From positions 101,941 through 165,940 of IMG/VR virus record IMGVR_UViG_3300031972_002446: a stretch of 64,000 nt of DNA; one strand, given 5' to 3'. Under the pieces are notes generated by a model, which saw nothing but the letters and a program-made list of their open reading frames with translations, did not search any database and was not told the origin of the DNA. Numbering within the stretch: the stretch's first letter is position 1; each line of letters starts with the position of its first letter. Shown here piece after piece: positions 6,701 through 62,641 of this stretch. This DNA comes from a virus. The position numbers and the translations under genes were made by a program.

Positions 6701-9700
6701 GTAGAATTCTTCAAGGAGCAGAAACTAGAGCTACCGAGAAAACAGGTATGCAAGGAGATCTAAAGGATGTTATTGTTAAAAATATACAATCTATTGGAGA
6801 TGCAGATGTAGAGGGTATGGTTAGAACAGAAGTATCTGATCTAGTTAAGAAAATTTATACGGGATATGATGAGATTGATCCAGATTTGTTGAATCAGGGT
6901 ATAGATGAACTTGTTCAAGGTATGAAGGCAGGACTATCTCTTGATGAAATTAAAAATATGTCTGATGGGTTTAAAGAAATTTTAGACGCACAAATTACTG
7001 CTGGTGATGAACTATCTGGTGTTACAGAAGAGATGGCTAAGAAATTAGGATTTTTGACATCTAGAATGAAAGTTCGAGATATTGATATGAAAGCTTCAGG
7101 TTCTCAAAAAGCCGGGAAGTTTGGAGCTTTAGATGACGATCTTAGAAAAGCACAAAAGAGTATCGAGTCTGGTGTCGGTTCTATATTAGATGGTTTTTCA
7201 GAAGCTGTTTCTTTACAAAATCTTCCAGGTATGAAGAAATTATCTAGTGCTTATCCAGAATTGACTAAAAAGATTACGACAGCCGGTGATAAATTAGGTG
7301 GTACTTTTGGCTTAATAGGTACTGGGGCAACACTACTAAGCTCTAAAATGCCAGAGCTGGGTCATGCTTTTGATGAATTAGCTGGTACGGTTAGTGACCA
7401 AAGCGCAGCATTCGCAGGCTTCACTGGAGCTTTACAAAAAGGCGGCTCTTTAGGTATGAGCGCAGGAATAGTTGGAGGTCAAGCTTTTGGTAGAAGAGGT
7501 GCTGCTGTAGGAGGTGCTGCTGGCTTAGCTGCTGGAGCTGTCACAGGTTTTATTGACGCTTCTATTGTAAAAGAGACAGAATTAGCCTTTAAAGGTATCG
7601 CAGCAGCTTCGGCAGAGCTGGACAAAACTTTTAATAGGTTGGATACTGCTGTAACTGTTGAAGAAAGAGCAGCATTACAAGAGCAGGCGGCAGAAGATTA
7701 TAATAAACTTAATGCTGCTATACAAAGAGCAACTGATACAATTGATGGTAATAGATTGTGGAAATCTTTTAGTGCTGGTATTAGTGGTATGACAACAGCT
7801 ATGATTAGTTTAATTGGTGTCATTAATGCTGTTAAATTAGCACAAGTAGCCTCTGCTCTTCTACCAGGTAAAGTTTCCGGTGGCATTGTTAAAGGTTATG
7901 CTTCTGGTGGTTTTGCTAAAGGTGGTCAGTCTAGTGGTATGGGGGTTCCTGTTAGGTTAGCTTCTGGAGAAGCTGTATTTACGCCTCCTTTACCTGGCAC
8001 TCTTTCTGAAATGAAACAATTGAATCAGATTGATCGTGGTGGTTCTTCAAGTTTAAGCCGAAAAGGTCAGACAGGTGGTTCTTTTATTGTTCCGGGTAAT
8101 AGTAGTGGTAAGGTAGATAATCAAAGCGCTATTTTACCAGAAAACAGTTTTGTTTTAAGAAGAGATGCTACAGATACTCTTAAAGCTATGAGAGGAGGTC
8201 CGATATCTGCTGCTACAGGTGGATTAATAGGTAGTGGTAGTGTTGGTTTCGGTGGTAGCGGAGGTATTCGTGGTTATTCTGTTGGTGGAAATATACAAGG
8301 TTATTTTGGCGGAGGTAGAGTTGCTTCTGCTCTATTAGCAAAACTAGTGGCTAATCTGGGTCGTTTAGGTCCAGCAATAACTGCTGGATTTGGTAGAATG
8401 TCACCAGCACTCAAAGCAATAACAGGCCAACTCGCTACAATGGTAGGTATTAGTGCTTTGGCAGGACTTTTTTCAGGCTTTTTTAGCTTTTTTATGGGTT
8501 CGGCTGAACGAGACAGGGCTATTCTACAACAACAATTGCAACAATTAGAGAATTTAAATACATTGGTTGGTAATCAGCAGTCTATGGATGTAAGAAATGA
8601 AGCTTTCGCTGATAGACTAATACCTGCTGTAGATGCAATCGAAAATTCTGGTTTGTCTATGGATCAGAAAGAAATGCAATTTGGTAGATTTAGAACTCCT
8701 GGTGGTAGAATGAATGATGCTAATCTTTTAGGAGAGATGACAGCTCGTCAAGCTATCGGAGCAGATGCAGACCTAGAAGCTGTAGGACAGAATCAGTCTG
8801 TACAAGAATATTTAGATAGTCTAGATCCTACACAAAGACAAAAAGCTAACGCAGCTATTGATAAAGCTCAAGGAGAGTTATTAAGAAGTACTTTTATAGA
8901 AAAAAGAAAAAGAGAAGGAATGGATGAAGTTGAGGCTTCGAGAGCTTATGATTCTGATCCTCAGGCTGCCAAAGCAGAGGCTCAAGAAGCTCTTGGAGAA
9001 AAGTCTAGGGCTGAGGGATTAGCTAAACGTATGCAAATTATCAATAGGTCTATTAATAAATTTACTCTTAATTTAGTAGATGTAATGAATCGATTAGGCA
9101 GCGTTATGAATCGAACAATCGGAGATTTAAATGCTAATATAGATAAAATGAGTCAGGTTTCTGATATTTACAGCGGAGGTCAAGCGGGTTCGCTAAATCC
9201 TAACGAAGATAATGTAAGAATTTTATCTAATATTACTGCTGCTAGTAATGCAGAATTAGCGCAAGCTGTTGGTCAAATTAATAAAGATCTTGGAGATACT
9301 AAAGAAACCCAAACGATGGCAGGTCTTATCAAGGGTATTCAAGTCTTGCAAAAAGAGCTGCCTTTAATTCTTAGACAAACAGGAACTGGTGGAGATTTAG
9401 ACGCTGGTTCAGAAACTAGTATTCGTGGTAGATTAGACACTATGTTTCAAGGTTTAGATATTGGTGAAAATTTAAAAAGAGATCTTAAGAGTAATGTTAT
9501 TAATTTTATTAATGATAAAACAGGTTCGAGACAAGGAGACTCTTTTGAAGATTTAGCAAACTATATAGATGGACTGAAGGAATTAGATGAGGCTGCTGAG
9601 CAAGCCAGAGCAACTTTTGAAAAGTATGCTAAAGAACAAGCTGATTTTAATAGAAAACTTGGAGGCTTATCTAATCAACTAAGCGCTCAACTATCTAAAC

Positions 9701-33453: not shown

Positions 33454-33626
33454 TTAATCTCTTCTACTTTCTTTTTATATTCGAATAAAACATTTTTGTT
33501 GTTTTCTAAATCGACAGCATTACTTTGTATTTCACAACAACTTTTTTTTATTTCTGGTACCTTCAGATACTCTCTATTTTTATATGTAAATCTTTGTCCA
33601 GTTTTTAGTTTAGAAAAATCTATCAT
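33450..33626 (-). CDS. Small 58-aa hypothetical protein (below the ORF-track cutoff)
   Basis: MIDFSKLKTGQRFTYKNREYLKVPEIKKSCCEIQSNAVDLENNKNVLFEYKKKVEEIK; ATGA overlaps at both ends. Confidence 0.7.
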   Translation of the reverse strand: MIDFSKLKTGQRFTYKNREYLKVPEIKKSCCEIQSNAVDLENNKNVLFEYKKKVEEIK

Positions 33627-35494
33627 ACTATAGCCTTTATTTTTAGTGTTCTTTGAGTGTGCATTATTTTATCAAGTAAAGCGATACCTAAAATATCGAA
33701 CTTAATAACACCTATAGATTCTAGATCTCCCATTTCGAAACCAGCGATACTTTGTTTTGTCTTAGTATCCCATAACATAGGACATATAGAGCTTAATTCG
33801 TTATTAGCGATTGCGATACCAGCAGCATGTTTAGATTGATTATATTTCGACCCTTCAAGCCTGATTGCTTGTTCAAACCTTTTTGAAAGAGGACCTTGCA
33901 ATTCTCCTTTATCATCTATATAACACCAGTCTTTTAATTTTTTAGAATTATTTTCCAAAGACCATTTGATAATGGAAGCATCTTCCATTTCCTGTAATTC
34001 GTCTGCAATTTTAGCTTCATCAGGAATATTTTTAGTTATACGATTCATTTCTTCAAAAGAAATATTACCGTATACTCTTAAAACTTCCTTCAGAGCCCCT
34101 CTACCTTTAAGTGTATTAAAAGTTATCATTTGAGAAACTTTGTCATTGCCGTATTTATCTTTAATATAATTAATGATAGATTCTCTATATTCGATAGGGA
34201 CATCTACATCAATATCGGGCATAGATATATGAGATTTAGTGTTTCTGCCTGTGTTATAGAATCTTTCGAAAATTAAATTATATTTAAGAGGATCAATTGC
34301 TGTGATACCAATCAAATAAGAAACCAAGCATCCCGCAGCACTACCCCTACCGGGACCAGGCAAACAGTTTTGAGATTTAACATATTCTACAATATCTCTG
34401 ACAATTAAAAAGTAACTTGCAAGGTTTGCAGCTTCTAGAACTTCAAATTCTTTCTTAACCCTATCTACATATATTTGATGTTTATCTTTGGGTATTATGT
34501 CTTTTATTTTTTGCTTCCAACCTATTCTACATAATTCTCGAATATATTCTATGGGGGTTTGTTTGTTTGGACATCTAAAATCTGGAAGTTGTGGAGAGAT
34601 TAATATATTGTAGTCCTCGCAAAGACTGTCTATTTTTAGAGTATTTTCTAATTCTTCCTTGTCGTGTATTTCAGACATCTCTTCAGCCGAAAGTATATAA
34701 TATTTATCGGAAGTAAAGAATGATGACAAGGGAACTTTTTCTTCATTTATTATTTTTTTTGATATTTCAGGAAGTGTTGTCTTTAAAGAACTACATAACA
34801 AAACTCTTTGATCTACAGCATCCGCCATTTCACAGTAATGAGCGTCTATAGTAGCGACTCTTTGTAAATTATTATCTATTGCTAATTGTCTTAGATTTTT
34901 ACCAATAGTTTGTTGATGGGTATTATCTGTGTCCATAAGCTGTATTTCTACATAGACATTGTCTTTACCAAATACCTCTTGCAATTGCTCAATATGTTTT
35001 AATCCTTTATCTTGCCAATTGTCTACTAAGGATTCTTTTTCGAAACTATAAATTTCATTACCTAGAGTAGAACCCGGATGTCCAGATATACATATCAAAT
35101 TCTGTTTATTTATTATTTTTTTTAATATTTGAATATCGAGTCTTGGTTTATGATAAAAATATTTTTCGTTATTAGATAAAGATACTATCTTAATCAGATC
35201 TTGCCAGCCATCATAATTTTTACAAAGGACTACGAGATGTGATAATGATTTTTTATTTTTATCTTTTATTGATGCGTCGCTATTGGTAATATACAACTCG
35301 CAACCCATAATTGGTTTGATATCATTTTTCTTCATGGTTTTATAGAAATCTACATTTCCAGATATAGTACCATGATCTGTAATAGCACAGGACTTAAAGC
35401 CTAACTTTTTACATCTTTTGGCTATTTGTTCAGGTTTGGAGAGCCCGTCCAATAAGCTATAATGACTATGCACATGTAAAGGGATGTACATCAA
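33623..35494 (-). CDS. dnaE: DNA polymerase III alpha, N-terminal half (PHP + palm)
   Basis: LHVHSHYSLLDG, AITDHG, GPGRGSAAG, FERF, MPDIDVD, HAAG, KFDILG. Confidence 0.95.
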   Translation of the reverse strand: MMYIPLHVHSHYSLLDGLSKPEQIAKRCKKLGFKSCAITDHGTISGNVDFYKTMKKNDIKPIMGCELYITNSDASIKDKNKKSLSHLVVLCKNYDGWQDLIKIVSLSNNEKYFYHKPRLDIQILKKIINKQNLICISGHPGSTLGNEIYSFEKESLVDNWQDKGLKHIEQLQEVFGKDNVYVEIQLMDTDNTHQQTIGKNLRQLAIDNNLQRVATIDAHYCEMADAVDQRVLLCSSLKTTLPEISKKIINEEKVPLSSFFTSDKYYILSAEEMSEIHDKEELENTLKIDSLCEDYNILISPQLPDFRCPNKQTPIEYIRELCRIGWKQKIKDIIPKDKHQIYVDRVKKEFEVLEAANLASYFLIVRDIVEYVKSQNCLPGPGRGSAAGCLVSYLIGITAIDPLKYNLIFERFYNTGRNTKSHISMPDIDVDVPIEYRESIINYIKDKYGNDKVSQMITFNTLKGRGALKEVLRVYGNISFEEMNRITKNIPDEAKIADELQEMEDASIIKWSLENNSKKLKDWCYIDDKGELQGPLSKRFEQAIRLEGSKYNQSKHAAGIAIANNELSSICPMLWDTKTKQSIAGFEMGDLESIGVIKFDILGIALLDKIMHTQRTLKIKAIV

Positions 35495-54233: not shown

Positions 54234-54482
54234 CTATTTACTCATTAGTTTATTATATAATAATAACGAAACACAAGCGCCGCCAACGCCAGCAAATATT
54301 CCTGCTGGCTCTATGGCGGAATATGAGCCTAGTAAGTATAGTCCAGCCCCACCCATATAAGAACCAGCCACTCCTAATGCTATAGTTTTAACAAAACCGA
54401 AGTTTTCTTCTCCAGGAATTATAGCCTTAGTTATAGAACCTACAAAAATACCATAAACACACCAGGTTAATATACTAATCAT
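54234..54482 (-). CDS. GlsB/YeaQ/YmgE (transglycosylase-associated) small membrane protein
   Basis: W..GIFVGSITKAIIPG...TIALGVAGSYMGG; three hydrophobic segments. Confidence 0.8.
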   Translation of the reverse strand: MISILTWCVYGIFVGSITKAIIPGEENFGFVKTIALGVAGSYMGGAGLYLLGSYSAIEPAGIFAGVGGACVSLLLYNKLMSK

Positions 54483-54858
54483 TTATTGCCTCCAGTAAAA
54501 CGGATACTTCTTCGTCCGTGATAAATTCTCCTTTATTAAATATTGCTTTAGATAAAGAATTACCATATAGTTTATAGTCTTCTTTACATAACTCTCTTCT
54601 AATTATTTTTTTTAATCTGATTCTATTAAACCAGCTTTTCTTTATTGATATCTCTTGAATTTTCTTTTTATAAAAATCTAAATCATGTTTTTCAGACTTA
54701 TTACATTCTTGTATTACTCTGATACCGTTAACAAGTATAGCAATCATCATTATTATCATTATTACACTGCCAAACTTATCTGATGGCAATTCCTGATTAG
54801 ATAATATGCTTGAAGCTAAATTTTTTAATTTCTCATCTTTAATTTCATTTTGATTCAT
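54475..54858 (-). CDS. Single-TM hypothetical protein
   Basis: GSVIMIIMMIAILVNGI hydrophobic segment followed by QEC. Confidence 0.6.
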   Translation of the reverse strand: MNQNEIKDEKLKNLASSILSNQELPSDKFGSVIMIIMMIAILVNGIRVIQECNKSEKHDLDFYKKKIQEISIKKSWFNRIRLKKIIRRELCKEDYKLYGNSLSKAIFNKGEFITDEEVSVLLEAIND

Positions 54859-54860
54859 AA

Positions 54861-55100
54861 TTATGGCTCACAATACTGACATTGAATTTTTGCTATTCCA
54901 TCACCACTTATGTACCATCCTTTACCCTTGCATACGGGACAATCTTTGCGTTTATACTTCGCGTTTTGTTCTGTAGAGTCTACAGCAATTCTGCCTCCAA
55001 CCATAGTAACAACACTAGTTGTGCTATAGTCATACTTTTCAGAAGACCCTCCGTAAAAAATAGCTGCCACTAAAGTACTAGCAAATAAAAGTTTATTCAT
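54861..55100 (-). CDS. Small signal/TM-anchored protein with CxxCxGxG Zn finger
   Basis: Hydrophobic N-terminus; CPVCKGKG...CQYC. Confidence 0.65.
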   Translation of the reverse strand: MNKLLFASTLVAAIFYGGSSEKYDYSTTSVVTMVGGRIAVDSTEQNAKYKRKDCPVCKGKGWYISGDGIAKIQCQYCEP

Positions 55101-55951
55101 AATTTACCTATTTTCTCTTTGGGTAATTTATTAAGTTCTTCTAATGTTGGAGCTTTTACACTTGGGTCTAAAGCCCATTCTATATCTTCTGATTTAGACC
55201 ATTTTTGTATTCTTCTCATAGGAACAATAAGATTAAATGTTTCACCAGCGCCACGAACTAACATCCCAATATATTCACCAGTGGTTAGGAAAACTCCACC
55301 ACCAGATGAACCGGGAAAAGCAGTTACTGTTGTTTGGTCAAATAAAATTTTAGTGCTACTATTCAGAGCAAGCATGCGACCTACCTGACTCATAATACCT
55401 GTAGTCATGCTATTAGCTCCACTTTCACCTAATAAAGAACCCACATGATATAATTGAGTACCTAAAGGAAGTCCAGAATTGCTTGTATCTTTTTCAAATC
55501 TTGCTGATACATCTACAAAATCAAACTTTTTAATCATGAGTAAAGCAAGATCCTCTCCATCTGTTGCATCACTATATTTAACAACCACAGCATCCATAGA
55601 TAATTCCCCAACAGTAATACCGTTTTCTATGAGCTTTTTAACTATCTTAACATCTTTAAATACAGGTTTCTTTAGTGTTTTACCTTCAATATCTAAAATA
55701 CTTCTGACACTTCTGATACCCTCTAAAACATGTGCGGCTGTCCATACAAAATTTACATTTTTTTCACCATCGTCTGATTGTATTTTTCTCGTAAATATAA
55801 CACCACTACCAGAACCTCTATCTGTTTTAATGGTCACGCTAATATCTTGTAAGTATTGACTGACAGGAATCTCTTCTGCTTGTAAAATAGATACTGGTAT
55901 TAACATTAATGTGATTATAAATAGTGGGGCTAGTTTAATCATTTTATCCAT
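55097..55951 (-). CDS. Secreted trypsin-like serine protease
   Basis: Signal peptide (...LQA-EE); GSGV, TAAHV, DLAL, PGSSGGG triad; start may be ATG 55942. Confidence 0.9.
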   Translation of the reverse strand: MDKMIKLAPLFIITLMLIPVSILQAEEIPVSQYLQDISVTIKTDRGSGSGVIFTRKIQSDDGEKNVNFVWTAAHVLEGIRSVRSILDIEGKTLKKPVFKDVKIVKKLIENGITVGELSMDAVVVKYSDATDGEDLALLMIKKFDFVDVSARFEKDTSNSGLPLGTQLYHVGSLLGESGANSMTTGIMSQVGRMLALNSSTKILFDQTTVTAFPGSSGGGVFLTTGEYIGMLVRGAGETFNLIVPMRRIQKWSKSEDIEWALDPSVKAPTLEELNKLPKEKIGKL

Positions 55952-56094
55952 CTCCTTAGGAAATCTAAAACTGGTCTTTTTTTGTCTGGTACAACATCAT
56001 GTTGTGTAGGTTTAAACATTTTTAAAATTGCTAATATAAAATTAGTAATTGTTTTAATCAGGCTATTTAAAGCTATTTTATCTAATAATTTCAT
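55939..56094 (-). CDS. Small 51-aa amphipathic/basic peptide (below the ORF-track cutoff)
   Basis: MKLLDKIALNSLIKTITNFILAILKMFKPTQHDVVPDKKRPVLDFLRRWIK; ATGA overlaps at both ends. Confidence 0.65.
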   Translation of the reverse strand: MKLLDKIALNSLIKTITNFILAILKMFKPTQHDVVPDKKRPVLDFLRRWIK

Positions 56095-57017
56095 AAGTAA
56101 TCTACGAAGCCGTAGTCCGGGAGTTTTTGTGGTGGAAATCCGTTAAAGTCACTAAAGGCATAAGCTCCGTTTTGCCTTAACATACCTTCTGCAACATCTG
56201 CATGTATTAAAAAAGATCCATCTGGGATTGGACCCCATTCTGGGTGTCCTCCGCTATTAAATTTACCCCAGCTGTTTTGTATAAGAAAAGCAGGCTCATC
56301 ACCAGTATCGTCACAAGCCGTCCAGGCCATCGCATGATTCCAGGACCCACTTTTTCGAGCAAATCCCTTGCTATTTCTTTTGTTAGAAAATCCATAATTA
56401 CTACAAACACTTAATCCATACCCATTGGCTAGCGCATCTCTAGCTTCTTCAACAGTTCTAATTAGAGAAACTGTTTTTATTTGATGTTCATCAGCTTTAT
56501 CTATTACTTTATCTGGTAAGCCTCTAGCCCCCCATTTAGCACCCATGCTACCGTTATATTTACTAAAATCTGCTACTCCTGGATAATTTTTACGAACTAA
56601 TACCCCACCTGTTTGGCTAACAAAAGTTGCAGCACGACTACAACTCATTCCTTGACCACCATGACCTCTACACCCATAGATAGCCTCCGTAGCGCCTCTA
56701 GCAATCCAGCTCTCTTTATCTCCTTTAACATCTATTTCAATGGCTCTAGTTACATCGCAAGCATTACGAGTAGCATGAGAAACACAATCTCCTGTGGTTT
56801 GTCTTTCTATATAAGCATTTTTATCAAATTTTAAAACCGACTTAAAAGGAGTTGATAATTTACCTTTACCACTATTTTTAATTTTTTTAGCACCATCTTT
56901 GAAATAGGCATACTTAGATGTGCTTATTAACTCATCAAAGATATGTGGTTCTGAAATTGAACCTATAAAACCTTTTTTATATAGATTATATAATTGATCT
57001 GGAGTCATTCTAGACAT
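56091..57017 (-). CDS. Papain-like (C1) cysteine protease
   Basis: QTTGDCVSH (Q...C), NHAM (H), IQNSWG (N). Confidence 0.85.
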   Translation of the reverse strand: MSRMTPDQLYNLYKKGFIGSISEPHIFDELISTSKYAYFKDGAKKIKNSGKGKLSTPFKSVLKFDKNAYIERQTTGDCVSHATRNACDVTRAIEIDVKGDKESWIARGATEAIYGCRGHGGQGMSCSRAATFVSQTGGVLVRKNYPGVADFSKYNGSMGAKWGARGLPDKVIDKADEHQIKTVSLIRTVEEARDALANGYGLSVCSNYGFSNKRNSKGFARKSGSWNHAMAWTACDDTGDEPAFLIQNSWGKFNSGGHPEWGPIPDGSFLIHADVAEGMLRQNGAYAFSDFNGFPPQKLPDYGFVDYL

Positions 57018-57520
57018 TATTTTGAACCCTCATAAAAAGCCCAGCTTAAAGCTCTAAAGGCGTTAACAGATTTTTGTCTCGTTGTATTATCTAAGATAAC
57101 GTCGTCTGAGCCGATAGCTGTAATAAGTAAATCTTTAGCAGACTCCGCTAAATTTGGATATTTGTCTTTAATATCAAGTCTAAGCATTTTACCAGCTAAA
57201 CTATTAGCTGATTTAATACTAGCGGTATCTTTAATAATCTCATCTTCATTATCTAAAGATATTAAAGTTGCCATATCTGAATATAAAGCAGATAATTTCA
57301 TACAGTCGCTAGGCTTGGTTGAATCATTAGATTCTCCAAGTATATTAATTATTATTCTGGCTTTATTTAGTAATTCAGTATCTGCTGGAGCATCTGTCAC
57401 ATATGTCTCCACAGAGCACTTGGGTTCTAAAGCAGGAATACTGAAAGAACTTAAATCTGGTTTAAATAAACCTATCGCTACTAATCCTGTAGCTATAAAA
57501 AGTAATCCTTTGTTATTCAT
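57017..57520 (-). CDS. N-terminally anchored/secreted hypothetical protein
   Basis: Likely ATG 57520 after GGAG; GLLFIATGLVAIGLF hydrophobic N-terminus. Confidence 0.6.
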   Translation of the reverse strand: MNNKGLLFIATGLVAIGLFKPDLSSFSIPALEPKCSVETYVTDAPADTELLNKARIIINILGESNDSTKPSDCMKLSALYSDMATLISLDNEDEIIKDTASIKSANSLAGKMLRLDIKDKYPNLAESAKDLLITAIGSDDVILDNTTRQKSVNAFRALSWAFYEGSK

Positions 57521-57917
57521 TATTATCTCCAGAAAAGGACTGTTTATCTTCACAAATATTTGGACTTAAATACGGAAACATTTGATCAGCGACTTCTACA
57601 GCTTTATCACAACCACTCTTGACCGCTAAATCTCTTGTTTGCTTCCATGAAACTACAAGATCAAAAAATACATCTCTTTCTTCTGAATTAACCTTTGGAG
57701 AAGAAGGAAACGAGTCTGGAATATCTGGTACTACAACCTTAACACTTTCGGGTATTTGGTTTTTTACGCTGTTAAATAAATTTAAAAGCAATTTTTGAAT
57801 TGGGCTTAATTTATCTTTAAACAAAACCCATATTACTATTCCTACCCCAGCATACAACGCTAAATCTGTTACTCCTAATCCAGCGCTAAATTCTTCAAAA
57901 CTTTGTGTAAAATTCAT
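57513..57917 (-). CDS. Single-TM hypothetical protein
   Basis: LALYAGVGIVIWVLF. Confidence 0.6.
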   Translation of the reverse strand: MNFTQSFEEFSAGLGVTDLALYAGVGIVIWVLFKDKLSPIQKLLLNLFNSVKNQIPESVKVVVPDIPDSFPSSPKVNSEERDVFFDLVVSWKQTRDLAVKSGCDKAVEVADQMFPYLSPNICEDKQSFSGDNNE

Positions 57918-57927
57918 AATTGTCCTT

Positions 57928-58356
57928 TCATGGTATATATAAAACTGTTACAGATTGATTTTGATAATCTTCATCGTCTAATTGTTTTTTAAGAAAAATA
58001 CCTGTTTGTCTAAAAGTAGCAACCAAAGCATCAATACTAGATCCTACTAAAATCATTAAAAATGCTTTGACATATTTGTGAATTATAGGTTCTATGATAT
58101 TAGGTATTACTGGTATATTCACAGCTATAAATACTTTATCATAAAAATCTGATAATAATTTTAATGCTAATTCTTTTTTGTCTGGGCTGCTTATATCAGT
58201 ACCAATTTTTTCAATAATTTGAATAACACTAGCTGTAACTACTTGTAAAATTTTCCATGCTTCAGCTACTGCGAATCTTTTGACATTTTTCAAGCTATCC
58301 TTAACTTGATTGGTTAGATTGTCAACTTCATTAGTAATTAATTCTTTACTATTCAT
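57928..58356 (-). CDS. Amphipathic helical hypothetical protein
   Basis: Likely ATG 58356 after GAGG; DKKELAL...NIPVIPNIIEPII. Confidence 0.55.
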   Translation of the reverse strand: MNSKELITNEVDNLTNQVKDSLKNVKRFAVAEAWKILQVVTASVIQIIEKIGTDISSPDKKELALKLLSDFYDKVFIAVNIPVIPNIIEPIIHKYVKAFLMILVGSSIDALVATFRQTGIFLKKQLDDEDYQNQSVTVLYIP

Positions 58357-58363
58357 TATTACC

Positions 58364-58843
58364 TCATGTGTGTATATATTTACGAATTTCTTGATAAATT
58401 GAATCACCGATACCGTTAATATTAATCAGTTCTTTAATATCTTTAAATTTTTGATTATTTCTATAGTCTATTATTTTTTGTGCTGTAGCAGGTCCTATGT
58501 GTGGCAATTGAATCAACTCTCCTAAACTTGCTTGGTTTATATTAACTGTAGATATCTTTTTGTCTATTCCTATATAATCTTCTAATTCTTTCCGTTGATT
58601 GTCTTGTTCCTTTTGTTTAGTTATTTCCTGTTGTACTTTTTCTTTTTCTCGTTTCTTAAGATATCTAGATAATACCATACATTGGCCACCCAATAAAATG
58701 ATACTCTCCACACCGTGAGTAACTGCGCTGATAAGATCGTCTTTGGTATCTGGTTCAGTAATTACTCCAATGATAAATAAGCCACTAATAATGAAGCTAA
58801 CTAATGTAAACCAGAATTCACTTGTTTGGTAAGATTTTTTCAT
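58364..58843 (-). CDS. Two-TM (holin-like) N-terminus fused to a ComEA-type HhH DNA-binding domain
   Basis: Likely ATG 58843 after GAGGA; YQTSEFW plus two TMs; VNINQASLGELIQLPHIGPATAQKIIDYR...GIG. Confidence 0.8.
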   Translation of the reverse strand: MKKSYQTSEFWFTLVSFIISGLFIIGVITEPDTKDDLISAVTHGVESIILLGGQCMVLSRYLKKREKEKVQQEITKQKEQDNQRKELEDYIGIDKKISTVNINQASLGELIQLPHIGPATAQKIIDYRNNQKFKDIKELININGIGDSIYQEIRKYIHT

Positions 58844-58863
58844 AAGTAGTCCTCTGTTATATC

Positions 58864-58871
58864 TATACACC
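58864..58871 (-). promoter_or_regulatory. GGTGTATA motif (candidate phage promoter) heading the protease/membrane cassette
   Basis: Intergenic, 20 nt upstream of ATG 58843. Confidence 0.4.
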
Positions 58872-58892
58872 AGAGGAGAACTTATGTATTAT

Positions 58893-59112: not shown

Positions 59113-60315
59113 TTAGTCAATACTTATAGTGGTATTAGGATCTGGTTGCCTTGAAATTTTTGGGTTTACACCAGGATGGATCTCCGTTTGAATGAAAGGT
59201 CCGTTACCTTTAGCTCCTTTACCCAGTTGGCCGTTACCATTGCCTTCTTGTGGAGCAGCTGCAAATAGAGGAGAACACGTACAGGATCCAGAAAGTATTT
59301 CTATGAAAACTTTTGATGGGCATTTTTTCTGAGAACAAGAATTAATAAAGAGCGCAGCTTTCTCCATAAACCTTGCAATAGATTTTGCACACCCTTCATT
59401 ACCAGCGGCTGCTACAGCTGCTTCGATTGCTGCTGTATAGTCTAGACCTGCAAAAGGATTTGATTGCCTATCATTGTAATAACCTTTACTAAGAGTTACC
59501 TCTTTTGATGCATATGCTTTGACTTCACAAGCATTTGCTGGAGGAGCTATACCTGTAAGATATTGCCAAGATAAATTAGACCCAGGACAAACAGCATAAC
59601 CTGGCAGAGCTCCTTTTGGGTGTAATTGCCATACTGATCTAGTAGGCGCACAACCGCCTTTAATATTTTTCGGCTGTTGGCAACATAAGGTGTAGCCGCC
59701 ACCAATAGCTGATCCAGTATAGCCGTTTGGACATCGCCCTCTAGTTATTTGCATTTCCTGACCAGTGCCGTTGGTTAAGGTATTTTCTCCTTGACAAAAT
59801 GTTTTTACATTAGGAGGCGTTGCTCCTACTGGTGTAATACTGCTAAGACCTGGGTATCCATTAGTATCGGTATCATCATCAGTAGCAGTAAAGCAATGTA
59901 TAGTTATATTAACAACGCAATTGCATTGTATGCTTGCAAATCTAGGAGGATCATCTGCACCCGCCCCTTTTGCACTACAATTTAAACCCATAACATTTGC
60001 AGCATTATACAACTCACTTAAGAATTTTTTCAATAGTTGCGGATTGTCTCTATGTCCTCGAATCACTTTTAGCACTAATGTGCCACTACACAAAGCTCCT
60101 AAACCTCTAGGATTGCATATAGCTCCTGCTGGTTTGGGTTCACATGTTACATTAGGAGGCACAGCATAACTTATAGGTAAGCATTCATCATAACTACAAC
60201 CGACTTCAACTTCTCCTTTAGTTCCGTTTATTTCTTTTAATTTTTCACCATTAAGATCACAATAACTGTGTGTTACTGGCGTATCTTTATTTAGTATTAT
60301 TGTAACACTACCCAT
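59113..60315 (-). CDS. Cys/Gly-rich protein, paralog A
   Basis: 400 aa, many Cys; aligns with 60334..61566. Confidence 0.7.
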   Translation of the reverse strand: MGSVTIILNKDTPVTHSYCDLNGEKLKEINGTKGEVEVGCSYDECLPISYAVPPNVTCEPKPAGAICNPRGLGALCSGTLVLKVIRGHRDNPQLLKKFLSELYNAANVMGLNCSAKGAGADDPPRFASIQCNCVVNITIHCFTATDDDTDTNGYPGLSSITPVGATPPNVKTFCQGENTLTNGTGQEMQITRGRCPNGYTGSAIGGGYTLCCQQPKNIKGGCAPTRSVWQLHPKGALPGYAVCPGSNLSWQYLTGIAPPANACEVKAYASKEVTLSKGYYNDRQSNPFAGLDYTAAIEAAVAAAGNEGCAKSIARFMEKAALFINSCSQKKCPSKVFIEILSGSCTCSPLFAAAPQEGNGNGQLGKGAKGNGPFIQTEIHPGVNPKISRQPDPNTTISID

Positions 60316-60333
60316 ATGATTAAATTTCCTTTT

Positions 60334-61566
60334 TTATATGCCACCTGGATCAGATGGTTCTGGATTAGTCGGTACATCAAATTTAGGGTCAGTAACTGTT
60401 GGACCTCCGGGCCCGTTACCTCCATTGCCGCCGCCATCACCGGGCCAGCCTCCCTCAAGAACCGGATCCGAACATGGAGAACAGCTTACACTGACGCTCT
60501 CAACTGACATCAGTACCGCCGCGCATCCAGGTTTTAACTTCTCGCAAGCGCTGGTAAAACTCTGTAGATCTGGGTCGTTCAGGGCCTCACTTACGGCCTT
60601 GTCAGCAGCACTTTGGGCTGATGGTATACAGCCACTCACTATACCATCTTTAAATGTGTCCGCTGTTATACCAGCAAACGGATTTGCACAAGGTTCTGGA
60701 AAATAACCTGATGAGCCGCAAAGATCTGAGCCTGCTAATGCCTCAAACCCGCAAGTATCATTAGGTCCAGGTACCGGTGCTAAATATTGATATGATTGCC
60801 CATTGTTGCAAGTCCAAGGTCCTCCACCCGTGTCATGTTTCGTTAACATAAAAGGACCAACATGTAGAGAACAAGCCATGTTTCCGGGTAAACTAGCAGG
60901 GTTTTTACAGCACAAAATCGAGCCACCTAGAGCCAGAACTGTGGTACCTGCAGGACACTTTGGTGGAATACCCACTGCAGCTGTAATTGCGTTTACATTA
61001 CCTCCTAAAGTGTTACCACCAGTACAACTTACAGGCATAGCAGGAACAGCACCACCTACAGGAGATCCATCCTCATCGTAGCCTGATGCCCCCACCTCAA
61101 TCTGATCCTGCTCTCCTTCATTAGTATGACAATAAGCTTTTACATACGCTGTTGCATTACAACAGCAATCTTTTAATTTACTAGGATTTCTATTACCGTG
61201 ACCCTTAGCCGTACAATTTGCTCCCTGAGTATTAGCTGCATTATATCCATAATTTAGATGCAGAAGTCTGGTCGCTGGATCCCAGGGGGCATTCAGAATT
61301 TTTCTTAAAACATTTCCACCACAACCACTCCATTTACTTACACTACAACCACCGGATTGTCTACCTCCTTTTGGTGTGCATGTAATACCACCGTCACCAC
61401 CCCATTGAATAGGCCAACAAGCGCCTACCGTTACGCTTGCCATAGCTACTTCCTCATCAATAGTGATTTTATTTCGTTTCATTGCCTCCTTAATACAGGC
61501 AGTTTCGGACGATAATGATAATTTGATTGAGTTTGTGTTCACACCGAATTCTATGGTTTCACTCAT
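60334..61566 (-). CDS. Cys/Gly-rich protein, paralog B
   Basis: 410 aa, many Cys; GAGGAG RBS; Pro/Gly-rich C-terminus. Confidence 0.7.
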   Translation of the reverse strand: MSETIEFGVNTNSIKLSLSSETACIKEAMKRNKITIDEEVAMASVTVGACWPIQWGGDGGITCTPKGGRQSGGCSVSKWSGCGGNVLRKILNAPWDPATRLLHLNYGYNAANTQGANCTAKGHGNRNPSKLKDCCCNATAYVKAYCHTNEGEQDQIEVGASGYDEDGSPVGGAVPAMPVSCTGGNTLGGNVNAITAAVGIPPKCPAGTTVLALGGSILCCKNPASLPGNMACSLHVGPFMLTKHDTGGGPWTCNNGQSYQYLAPVPGPNDTCGFEALAGSDLCGSSGYFPEPCANPFAGITADTFKDGIVSGCIPSAQSAADKAVSEALNDPDLQSFTSACEKLKPGCAAVLMSVESVSVSCSPCSDPVLEGGWPGDGGGNGGNGPGGPTVTDPKFDVPTNPEPSDPGGI

Positions 61567-61569
61567 GTG

Positions 61570-61902
61570 TTACTCCTCTATTCTTTTTTCTAGGTTGTCT
61601 AATGTTTTGCTTAAAGTGGCGATGTTGATTTTTAACTCTGTCATCACCTCTGTATTTTTTTCTAAAGCTCTAAATAAAATATTAGTAGCTTCTTTGCTGT
61701 CGTTTAATCTTTCCATGATAAAATTTCTATCTTTGGCATATTGACTACCTTGAGACTGAGCAGCAATCATTTCTTCTACTTCTTTTTTATTAACTAAATT
61801 TCTAACAAATGTAGTCCAAAAACCTATTAAGGCTATAACTACACTTGCCATGTGTGTGGTAAAGTTATCAAAAAAATGACCCACGGTATTAGGATCTGCC
61901 AT
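61570..61902 (-). CDS. Single-TM + coiled-coil protein (holin-like topology)
   Basis: MASVVIALIGFWTTFV followed by a coiled coil (ALEKNTEVMTEL...LDNLE). Confidence 0.5.
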   Translation of the reverse strand: MADPNTVGHFFDNFTTHMASVVIALIGFWTTFVRNLVNKKEVEEMIAAQSQGSQYAKDRNFIMERLNDSKEATNILFRALEKNTEVMTELKINIATLSKTLDNLEKRIEE

Positions 61903-62128: not shown

Positions 62129-62641
62129 TTACTTTGCTGGATAATTTTGGGAAGTAGGTTTACTAGCATTAGCTTTAAATGTAATACTACCAGGAATAGC
62201 AGCGTTAGATCTAGCAGCATTGTCGTTACCATAACTATCTGAACTAGTAGCAGGATAACTTAATGCAAAATCTCCAGTAAAGATGTTAAATTTACCGGCT
62301 CTAATAGCAGTAGCTGTTAGAACAGTGCTGGCACTTTCTATATAATTAATACTTCTTACATATGCTGGGTATATGCTACCATTACGCAAAGGTCTTTTAG
62401 ATCCTACAGGATCTGATGATCTTTGAGCTATTAAAGTATTGGTATCTTTACCAAAAGCATATCCTAGAATAGCTTTTTGCGCATCGTCGCCATTATGAGG
62501 AGTTGAGTCAAATACATGAGTCTGATCATAATAATTAGCTGGTTTGTGGATTTTAACATTAGCAGATCCTGAGGAACCTGCAGCGATAGTTGTTTTATTA
62601 GACCCTTCTGTTGACCCAACAACATAGTGAATACTTGCCAT
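62129..62641 (-). CDS. Hypothetical protein, possibly virion-associated
   Basis: 170 aa, Ala/Ser/Thr-rich, AAGGAG RBS. Confidence 0.6.
   Translation of the reverse strand: MASIHYVVGSTEGSNKTTIAAGSSGSANVKIHKPANYYDQTHVFDSTPHNGDDAQKAILGYAFGKDTNTLIAQRSSDPVGSKRPLRNGSIYPAYVRSINYIESASTVLTATAIRAGKFNIFTGDFALSYPATSSDSYGNDNAARSNAAIPGSITFKANASKPTSQNYPAK

Follow-up and report, generated by a model that had tools for sequence, protein, structure and literature searches.

The window analysed in this study is a stretch of 64,000 nucleotides, the last 64 kb of the 165,940-bp IMG/VR virus record IMGVR_UViG_3300031972_002446, a linear genome with a GC content of 33% that was rated 100% complete by CheckV. The system in question is a block of ten open reading frames (ORFs) on the minus strand at positions 54234-58870, designated g1 to g10, in which a gene for a papain-fold cysteine peptidase (g5) stands among genes for small membrane and exported proteins. 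An initial annotation, made from the letters of the window, had described ten tightly packed genes, most of them for membrane or exported proteins and one for a papain-like cysteine protease, and had proposed a lysis or egress module. All ten ORFs are present and real, tightly packed or overlapping, and their hydropathy agrees with the description; the richness in membrane and exported proteins was confirmed, and the papain-like protease proved genuine, with a C1A fold in its model and the Q/C/H/N residues intact. The likely starts of three genes lie at later ATGs than those of the longest ORFs (58843 for g1, giving 159 amino acids (aa); 58356 for g2, 142 aa; 57520 for g4, 167 aa), which were preferred because of better ribosome-binding sites and agreement with relatives.

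Conservation of the gene block

Synteny was analysed in two sets of loci, 80 from IMG/VR retrieved with g5 as the seed and 78 retrieved separately with g2, from about 150 related viral contigs. The order g1-g2-g3-g4-g5-g6-g8-g9-g10 was retained in roughly 70-78 of the 80 g5-seeded loci and also across the 78 g2-seeded loci, and g1-g6 together with g8-g10 are a conserved unit. The g5 gene was found in 76 of the 78 g2-seeded loci, the remaining two of which end early, and no other enzyme occupied the g5 position in any of the 78, so non-orthologous displacement was not seen. All six complete genomes (this one and five relatives of 157-231 kb, one with terminal repeats) retain the nine-gene cassette. 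Identity across the 80 loci was 73-92% for g5, 59-85% for g10 and about 40-67% for the other genes, with hot spots of insertion at the g5-g6 and g8-g9 junctions. An analogous layout was found in a distant phage whose g5 homologue is 35% identical, comprising small transmembrane (TM) proteins, two lipoproteins, the C1 gene, an exported Trypsin_2 protease and a CxxCxGKG peptide. Scans for consensus promoters and terminators inside the block gave results near chance, and no terminator stood out after g10. Among 50,697 records of cultured phages, neither DNA nor protein searches returned a relative of the block or of g5, and eight of the ten cassette proteins had no match in PHROGs.

The g5 peptidase and its probable envelope partners

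The g5 gene (56091-57017, minus strand) encodes a protein of 308 aa with Q73, C78, H228 and N248 as its Q/C/H/N set and, by hydropathy, no signal peptide. At the sequence level its match to Peptidase_C1 PF00112 is below the cut-off (14.4 bits against a gathering threshold of 20.7, E 0.041), and a search against the PDB gave no match. A model built by AlphaFold2 (AF2) from an alignment of 67 diverse homologues reached a predicted local distance difference test (pLDDT) score of 95.3, and its nearest structure by Foldseek and VIA was xylellain 3ois (Z 20.9, root-mean-square deviation (rmsd) 3.0 A over 234 residues). Mature papain aligned with residues 51-291 (Z 17.1, rmsd 2.7 A over 197 residues), procathepsins and propapain gave Z 18-19, and about 50 C1A entries gave Z 17-19 over residues 5-292 (Foldseek E 1e-8). 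Since zymogen structures align from model residue 5, and mature enzymes from about residue 50, the first 50 or so residues of g5 resemble the cleft-crossing end of a C1A propeptide, and the model suggests that this segment may be autoinhibitory. Among the 67 homologues C78 and H228 are invariant, Q73, N248, S249 and W250 are kept in at least 90%, and C78 is the only universal cysteine of the family. By its modelled fold and its intact Q/C/H/N set g5 is a true C1A papain-fold enzyme, with predicted activity.

The g5 family is large, with 1897 word-indexed matches and 1466 clusters at 50% identity. Inteins with LAGLIDADG domains interrupt many homologues at three sites, one immediately ahead of C78, one immediately behind H228 and one following the NSWG motif, and single homologues carry up to three of them (homologues P0123-P0272; loci L150, L153, L154, L158, L161 and L162); their position at the catalytic motifs indicates that these three motifs are the most constrained parts of a widely shared gene. 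Where long homologues have N-terminal extensions, inteins were also the only Pfam domains found there. Some relatives encode, a few kb downstream, a protein of about 699 aa that includes a second, diverged g5-like domain with about 36% identity over the Cys and His regions (L001 13765-15864, also L127, L158 and L167); this genome lacks the domain, which may be a version carried by the particle.

Directly ahead of g5, and overlapping its start with the stop codon, lies g4 (57017-57520, minus strand), which encodes a signal-anchored five-helix domain of 167 aa. Its AF2 model (pLDDT 86.7) consists of a TM helix at residues 3-19, a linker, and helices over residues 48-166. Fold searches with this model gave noise-level helical-bundle matches only (best Z 6.4) and no clear structural relative, and a predicted complex of g5 with the g4 domain scored 0.04. 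The relation between the two proteins was found in a survey of g5 family N-termini in the best 150 representatives, 14 of which start with a hydrophobic signal-anchor followed by an acidic Pro-rich (Pro/Asp/Gly) linker, while five start with a twin-arginine translocation (Tat) signal, e.g. SRRDFL. The anchored extensions, 12 of the 14 being aligned, matched the g4 profile at 99.2% in hhalign (E 1.3e-19) and with E down to 1e-6 in phmmer. The extensions are homologous to g4, and g4 and g5 thus form one polypeptide in other phages; by the signal-anchor and the positive-inside rule, both the g4-like and the C1 domains of the fused proteins would lie outside the cytoplasm. In the distant loci L091 and L097 a g4 homologue stands directly upstream of the C1 gene.

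A second partner may be g8 (54861-55100, minus strand), a gene for a 79-aa exported or anchored CxxCxGxG...CxxC peptide that is present in 75 of the 80 loci; the CxxCxGxG motif and the second CxxC were found in 59 of 59 homologues. After C1, L091 has a gene for an exported, Cys-rich peptide like g8, and L097 and L099 have one for a thioredoxin-fold protein; one thioredoxin-fold protein in this position is a lipoprotein. From these patterns g8 is a candidate thiol-redox partner of g5, with a putative redox role. The signal-anchor and g4 fusions, the Tat signals in homologues and the exported CxxC or thioredoxin-fold neighbour together suggest that g5 most likely works in the periplasm, and a periplasmic cysteine peptidase with a dedicated thiol-redox helper would be the simplest reading of the anchors and CxxC neighbours.

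Other lysins, neighbouring genes and flanks

Family-by-family six-frame scans of the whole 165,940-bp record were carried out with 17 muralytic Pfam families, namely GH24, GH25, GH19, GH108, SLT, glucosaminidase, Phage_lysozyme2, Muramidase, Hydrolase_2, Amidase_2, Amidase_3, CHAP, NlpC/P60, M23, M15_3, M15_4 and VanY. No real match was obtained for these families in the complete genome, CHAP (PF05257) and NlpC/P60 (PF00877) giving no match at all, with the Muramidase (PF11860) scan being uninformative as its control search was also empty. The earlier observation that no lysozyme, amidase, M15 or M23 motif is recognisable in the window therefore extends to the whole record. In the five further complete relatives GH24, Amidase_2, SLT, M23, M15_4 and GH19 likewise gave no real match, so none of the tested families of canonical endolysin was found in the rest of the genome or in its relatives. 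As a control of the method, the six-frame scan recovered a PF04226 domain of 29 bits in 5/5 genomes.

Three sub-threshold matches were rejected. One to GH108 lies inside a 76-aa winged-helix-like ORF and one to M15_4, in a relative, inside a split DnaE, both unrelated proteins; a match to M23 in one relative (13 bits, in a 639-aa ORF) is far below the cut-off and was dismissed on score alone. The spurious M15_4 match maps to the end of the N-terminal fragment of DnaE (the split DNA polymerase III alpha), in the region of window positions 33626-34050 (G000 135569-135988), and is a trap for automated lysin calls. No credible lipobox ORF was found in the cassette or in any frame of this genome, and hence no lipoprotein of a two-component spanin. 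In L097, the C1 protein of which bears a Tat signal, the thioredoxin-fold gene is followed by a Pro-rich, lipoprotein-like ORF of 71 aa (8931-9146) that may be of the o-spanin type; it has no counterpart in this genome.

The first gene of the cassette, g1 (58364-58843, minus strand), encodes a 159-aa protein with two conserved TM helices, an acidic loop and a charged tail, and its first 65 or so residues are conserved in 72 of the 80 loci. The C-terminus carries a ComEA-type helix-hairpin-helix (HhH) domain (PF12836 HHH_3, 63.2 bits against a threshold of 27, E 2.5e-17; TIGR00426, 3.7e-11); the full-length ComEA model TIGR01259 scored 60 against the 152 required, so that only the domain is shared. 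The ComEA fusion that the initial annotation had listed among the cassette proteins is not a core part, since the tail is HhH in only 21 of 53 distinct homologues and basic and of low complexity in the other 32. Its small size, TM helices, charged tail and position beside an enzyme gene make g1 holin-like by features. The next gene, g2 (57928-58356, minus strand), encodes a 142-aa helical protein and is present in 75 of the 80 loci, with a homologue in the distant locus L097 (5e-12). In the g2 family 13 of 39 members match Holin_LLH PF09682 below the cut-off (best E 0.0012), which makes it the top family by member count, and a protein atlas search returned unnamed viral clusters only.

Two further genes of the unit encode membrane proteins with no family match: g3 (57513-57917, minus strand; 77/80 and 78/78 loci), a 134-aa acidic protein with one N-terminal TM helix, and g9 (54475-54858, minus strand; 69/80 loci), a 127-aa single-TM protein with a basic C-terminal domain. 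The last gene, g10 (54234-54482, minus strand; 70/80 loci), encodes a small membrane protein of the GlsB/YeaQ/YmgE type (PF04226, 28.6 bits against a threshold of 25.3, E 1.7e-6, and 29.3 bits in the six-frame scan; NF007771, 2.2e-9), and PF04226 was found in 5/5 complete genomes. Overlapping the g5 stop, g6 (55939-56094, minus strand; 73/80 loci) encodes a cationic amphipathic peptide of 51 aa with a net charge of +7; the family ranges from +3 to +10 (median +7), with a hydrophobic moment of up to 0.57, and falls within the size and charge range of disruptin candidates (<80 aa, net charge of at least +4, helical, near lysis genes).

The g7 gene (55097-55951, minus strand) encodes an exported trypsin-like serine protease of the HtrA type without PDZ, with an N-terminal signal peptide and the His/Asp/Ser triad motifs TAAHV, DLALL and GSSGG. 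It matches Trypsin_2 PF13365 with 44.6 bits against a threshold of 27.6 (E 3.1e-11), and HtrA/DegP models weakly. Present in 6/80 and 3/78 loci, where it is inserted at variable points, g7 is an accessory insert, and the earlier proposal of two protease classes acting together is not supported by this distribution, although a Trypsin_2 gene does occur near C1 in the one distant phage.

The motif GGTGTATA is found 21-28 nt ahead of the g1 ATG. The window has six copies of it against 1.7 expected and the genome 16, about ten of these genomic copies being intergenic, correctly oriented and 1-80 nt upstream of gene starts; it precedes the first gene of the plus-strand terminase block and a gene beside the tail region. 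On this distribution GGTGTATA is plausible as a phage promoter element, and it does not by itself show late timing, since the same motif precedes an auxiliary-metabolism operon. Ahead of g1 the promoter-like motif is located inside a hairpin (58838-58892, minus strand) in which the Shine-Dalgarno sequence and the AUG of g1 are both base-paired; its RNA folding energy is -20.6 kcal/mol (z -5.0). Only the closest relatives have similar hairpins, the arms of which have changed, and the AUG is paired in 13 of 52. Transcripts beginning at GGTGTATA would be without the 5' arm of the hairpin.

The cassette is placed after a Cys-rich gene pair and a 63-aa gene, and is flanked by surface-glycan genes (RgpF, glycosyltransferases, a sulfotransferase) and by variable Cys-rich or Mtd_N proteins; replication and glycan-synthesis genes occupy 24-54 kb of the window on the minus strand. 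It lies outside the block of structural genes, which occupies about 81-126 kb of the genome and from which ten proteins compared with PHROGs gave a clear match for the terminase only, plus one weak virion-protein match. Upstream of the cassette, many relatives share two genes that may belong to the same functional unit: one at 61570-61902 (minus strand), whose 110-aa product combines an N-terminal TM helix with a coiled coil, and one at 62129-62641 (minus strand) for a 170-aa protein, with another GGTGTATA ahead of it. The slot between the TM/coiled-coil gene and g0/g1 is variable (window 59113-61566 versus 5830-8267 in the relative L001), containing two Cys-rich paralogues, 28% identical to one another, in this genome and a tropism-determinant-like Mtd_N protein with a 271-aa protein in L001.

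As for the host, contigs with g5 were binned to a Flavobacteriales metagenome-assembled genome (MAG), an Alphaproteobacteria MAG and an unclassified MAG, and no single host was assigned. On the contig region G000:C1:51662-55952 (loci L006 and L007) Pfam confirmed that this phage encodes a PSCyt1-DUF1549-DUF1553 protein (E 2e-81) as well as one with DUF1501 (E 1e-133), accompanied by a sulfotransferase and a ferredoxin. These families are typical of Planctomycetota and Verrucomicrobiota, and the genes are only a hint, from their sequence, at a host of the PVC group (Planctomycetota, Verrucomicrobiota and relatives).

A lysis-type reading and its rivals

Our preferred reading, to which we give a probability of about one half, is that the block is a conserved non-canonical lysis-type cassette in which the C1A peptidase g5, and not a glycosidase or amidase endolysin, would be the effector in the periplasm or envelope, with a putative substrate and timing. 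A lysis function is favoured because a conserved unit, a true C1A enzyme, a probable envelope location, a candidate redox partner, the lack of any other lysin in the scans and lysis-type neighbours come together. What stands of the initial lysis or egress interpretation is a conserved envelope-directed cassette with one protease class (C1A with g4 and g8), not the two-class protease system; the alternative then mentioned, that the papain-fold enzyme is itself an envelope or peptidoglycan peptidase, has become the reading favoured by the evidence.

Textbook phage lysis of outer-membrane bacteria proceeds by a holin, a peptidoglycan hydrolase and a spanin. The present block resembles holin-endolysin-spanin cassettes (lambda S-R-Rz/Rz1, P1 Lyz) in its compactness and in having a two-TM charged-tail protein first, followed by a soluble hydrolase without a signal peptide; as in endolysins, the g5 family has cytoplasmic, signal-anchored and exported versions. 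P1 Lyz is controlled by disulfide caging, which the thiol chemistry beside the g5 catalytic Cys recalls. As for access to the periplasm, a criterion for endolysins, 19 of the 150 representatives carry a signal-anchor or Tat signal, and the form encoded here follows a holin-like gene. Unlike in those cassettes, g5 is a C1A enzyme and not a muramidase, transglycosylase, amidase, M15/M23, CHAP or NlpC/P60 protein, the core comprises nine genes where those have three or four, an o-spanin lipoprotein is lacking, and the holin candidates are below family cut-offs.

With C1A peptidases (xylellain of Xylella fastidiosa, then procathepsins B, K and L and propapain) g5 shares the two-lobed fold, the Gln-Cys-His-Asn order with an NSW motif, and, at the N-terminus, a short stretch that can be superposed on the part of the propeptide crossing the cleft. 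It differs from them in being only 11-19% identical, in having no conserved disulfide cysteines, and in being phage-encoded, paired or fused with a signal-anchored helical domain and invaded by inteins at all three catalytic motifs. Among the viral models close to g5 in Foldseek are phage proteins with a papain-like domain that carry the labels peptidoglycan-binding, N-acetylmuramidase or Lysin A, which we count as fold precedent. In phage clan CA peptidoglycan peptidases (CHAP, NlpC/P60, Amidase_5) a Cys-His papain-like core acts on cell-wall peptides (PMC10318531). g5 shares this catalytic core, its fold being, unlike that of CHAP and NlpC/P60, a full-size C1A fold with both lobes and not the minimal core. 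For g6 the closest parallel by features is the phiKT gp28 disruptin, a 56-aa cationic peptide encoded between endolysin and holin (bioRxiv 10.1101/515445): g6 is likewise small (51 aa), +7 and amphipathic, its gene adjoins the enzyme gene and the genome is without spanins, whereas its N-terminal half is more hydrophobic.

The following sequence of events could be envisaged. Without a signal peptide, as observed, g5 would build up folded in the cytoplasm, its N-terminal 50 or so residues placed like the cleft cover of a C1A propeptide. The two-TM protein g1, predicted to be N-in/C-in with a charged tail, would open the inner membrane, perhaps with g2 and g10, and g5 would meet the periplasmic five-helix domain of g4, with which it is observed fused in other phages. 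The exported CxxC peptide g8 would then keep or make the catalytic thiol reduced, and g5 would cut peptide bonds of the wall (peptidoglycan stems or cross-links) and/or proteins that tether the outer membrane. The +7 peptide g6, proposed for this role because no lipoprotein spanin was found, may disrupt the outer membrane, and g7 and the HhH tail of g1 would be optional additions.

Several points weigh against this lysis reading. We know of no C1A enzyme that cleaves peptidoglycan, and a literature search returned no report of one. By domain g5 does not fall into the endolysin class, having only C1 and no known muralytic catalytic domain, and the g4 domain is without a cell-wall-binding fold. 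The holin candidates are below recognised limits: g1 matched none of the curated holin families of Pfam and NCBIfam, its PHROG matches being scattered (E > 0.01, 3 of 31 members), and g2 itself scored 14.5 bits against a threshold of 24.9 for Holin_LLH PF09682 (E 0.049). The conservation of g5 far above its neighbours (73-92% versus 40-67%), together with its being an intein hot spot, is not usual among endolysins and fits core enzymes of replication or packaging better. Finally, the strong divergence of this phage, in which PHROGs recognise almost none of the ten structural-region proteins, means that a muralytic enzyme, if itself very divergent, could have escaped detection by the Pfam profiles.

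Such an escaped enzyme would be required if the block were instead a periplasmic envelope-remodelling or superinfection-exclusion module, trimming surface, receptor or tether proteins of the host while final lysis is left to an unrecognised enzyme, which we consider unlikely. The evidence for periplasmic action applies equally to such a module, and the flanking surface-glycan genes and variable Cys-rich or Mtd_N proteins, the protein-cutting nature of C1A enzymes and the exported serine protease that sometimes joins the block are all in keeping with it. However, it demands that six complete genomes each hide an additional endolysin, leaves unexplained that g5 here is without a signal peptide yet behind a holin-like gene, and must be reconciled with the usual variability of exclusion genes, given the 73-92% conservation of g5.

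It is improbable that g5 is a morphogenetic or virion-associated protease, acting in virion protein processing or in wall penetration at entry, with membrane neighbours that are unrelated small genes. Inteins and a very high level of conservation typify core genes of the virion or of replication, and the second g5-like domain, in the 699-aa protein of some relatives, could belong to a particle protein; the Tat signals, signal-anchors and exported redox partners of homologues are nevertheless incompatible with cytoplasmic assembly, the block lies outside the structural genes, and g5 is strictly linked to g2 and g4. Least probable of all, a cytoplasmic host-takeover or counter-defence protease that cleaves a host regulator or defence protein and is merely co-transcribed with membrane genes would agree with the lack of an export signal in g5 here and with the many regulatory and deconjugating enzymes of clan CA (PMC10318531), but not with exported or anchored homologues that have redox partners, with the g4-domain fusion behind a signal-anchor, or with a fold nearest to digestive-type C1A enzymes and not to deubiquitinase-like families.

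Six complete genomes of a widespread lineage thus have none of the tested hydrolase families, the absence of a spanin lipoprotein having been checked in this genome only, and the g5 family, with up to three inteins per protein, is a new intein-rich extein. We propose tentatively, at somewhat under even odds, that an uncultured abundant clade of 150-230-kb aquatic phages has replaced the muralytic endolysin by a C1A system in which the enzyme works with a helical partner behind a signal-anchor, fused to it in some lineages, and with an exported activator of the thiol-redox kind. Should the protease prove to be the lytic agent, it would add a new catalytic class to the endolysins and a new source of enzybiotic domains, give a worked example of a thiol-activated periplasmic lysin, and explain why automated analysis returns no endolysin for many metagenomic phages. 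Inteins could then home to a lysis-type gene, and g5 would stand for a class of phage lysis enzymes that is new and is activated by a logic of its own.

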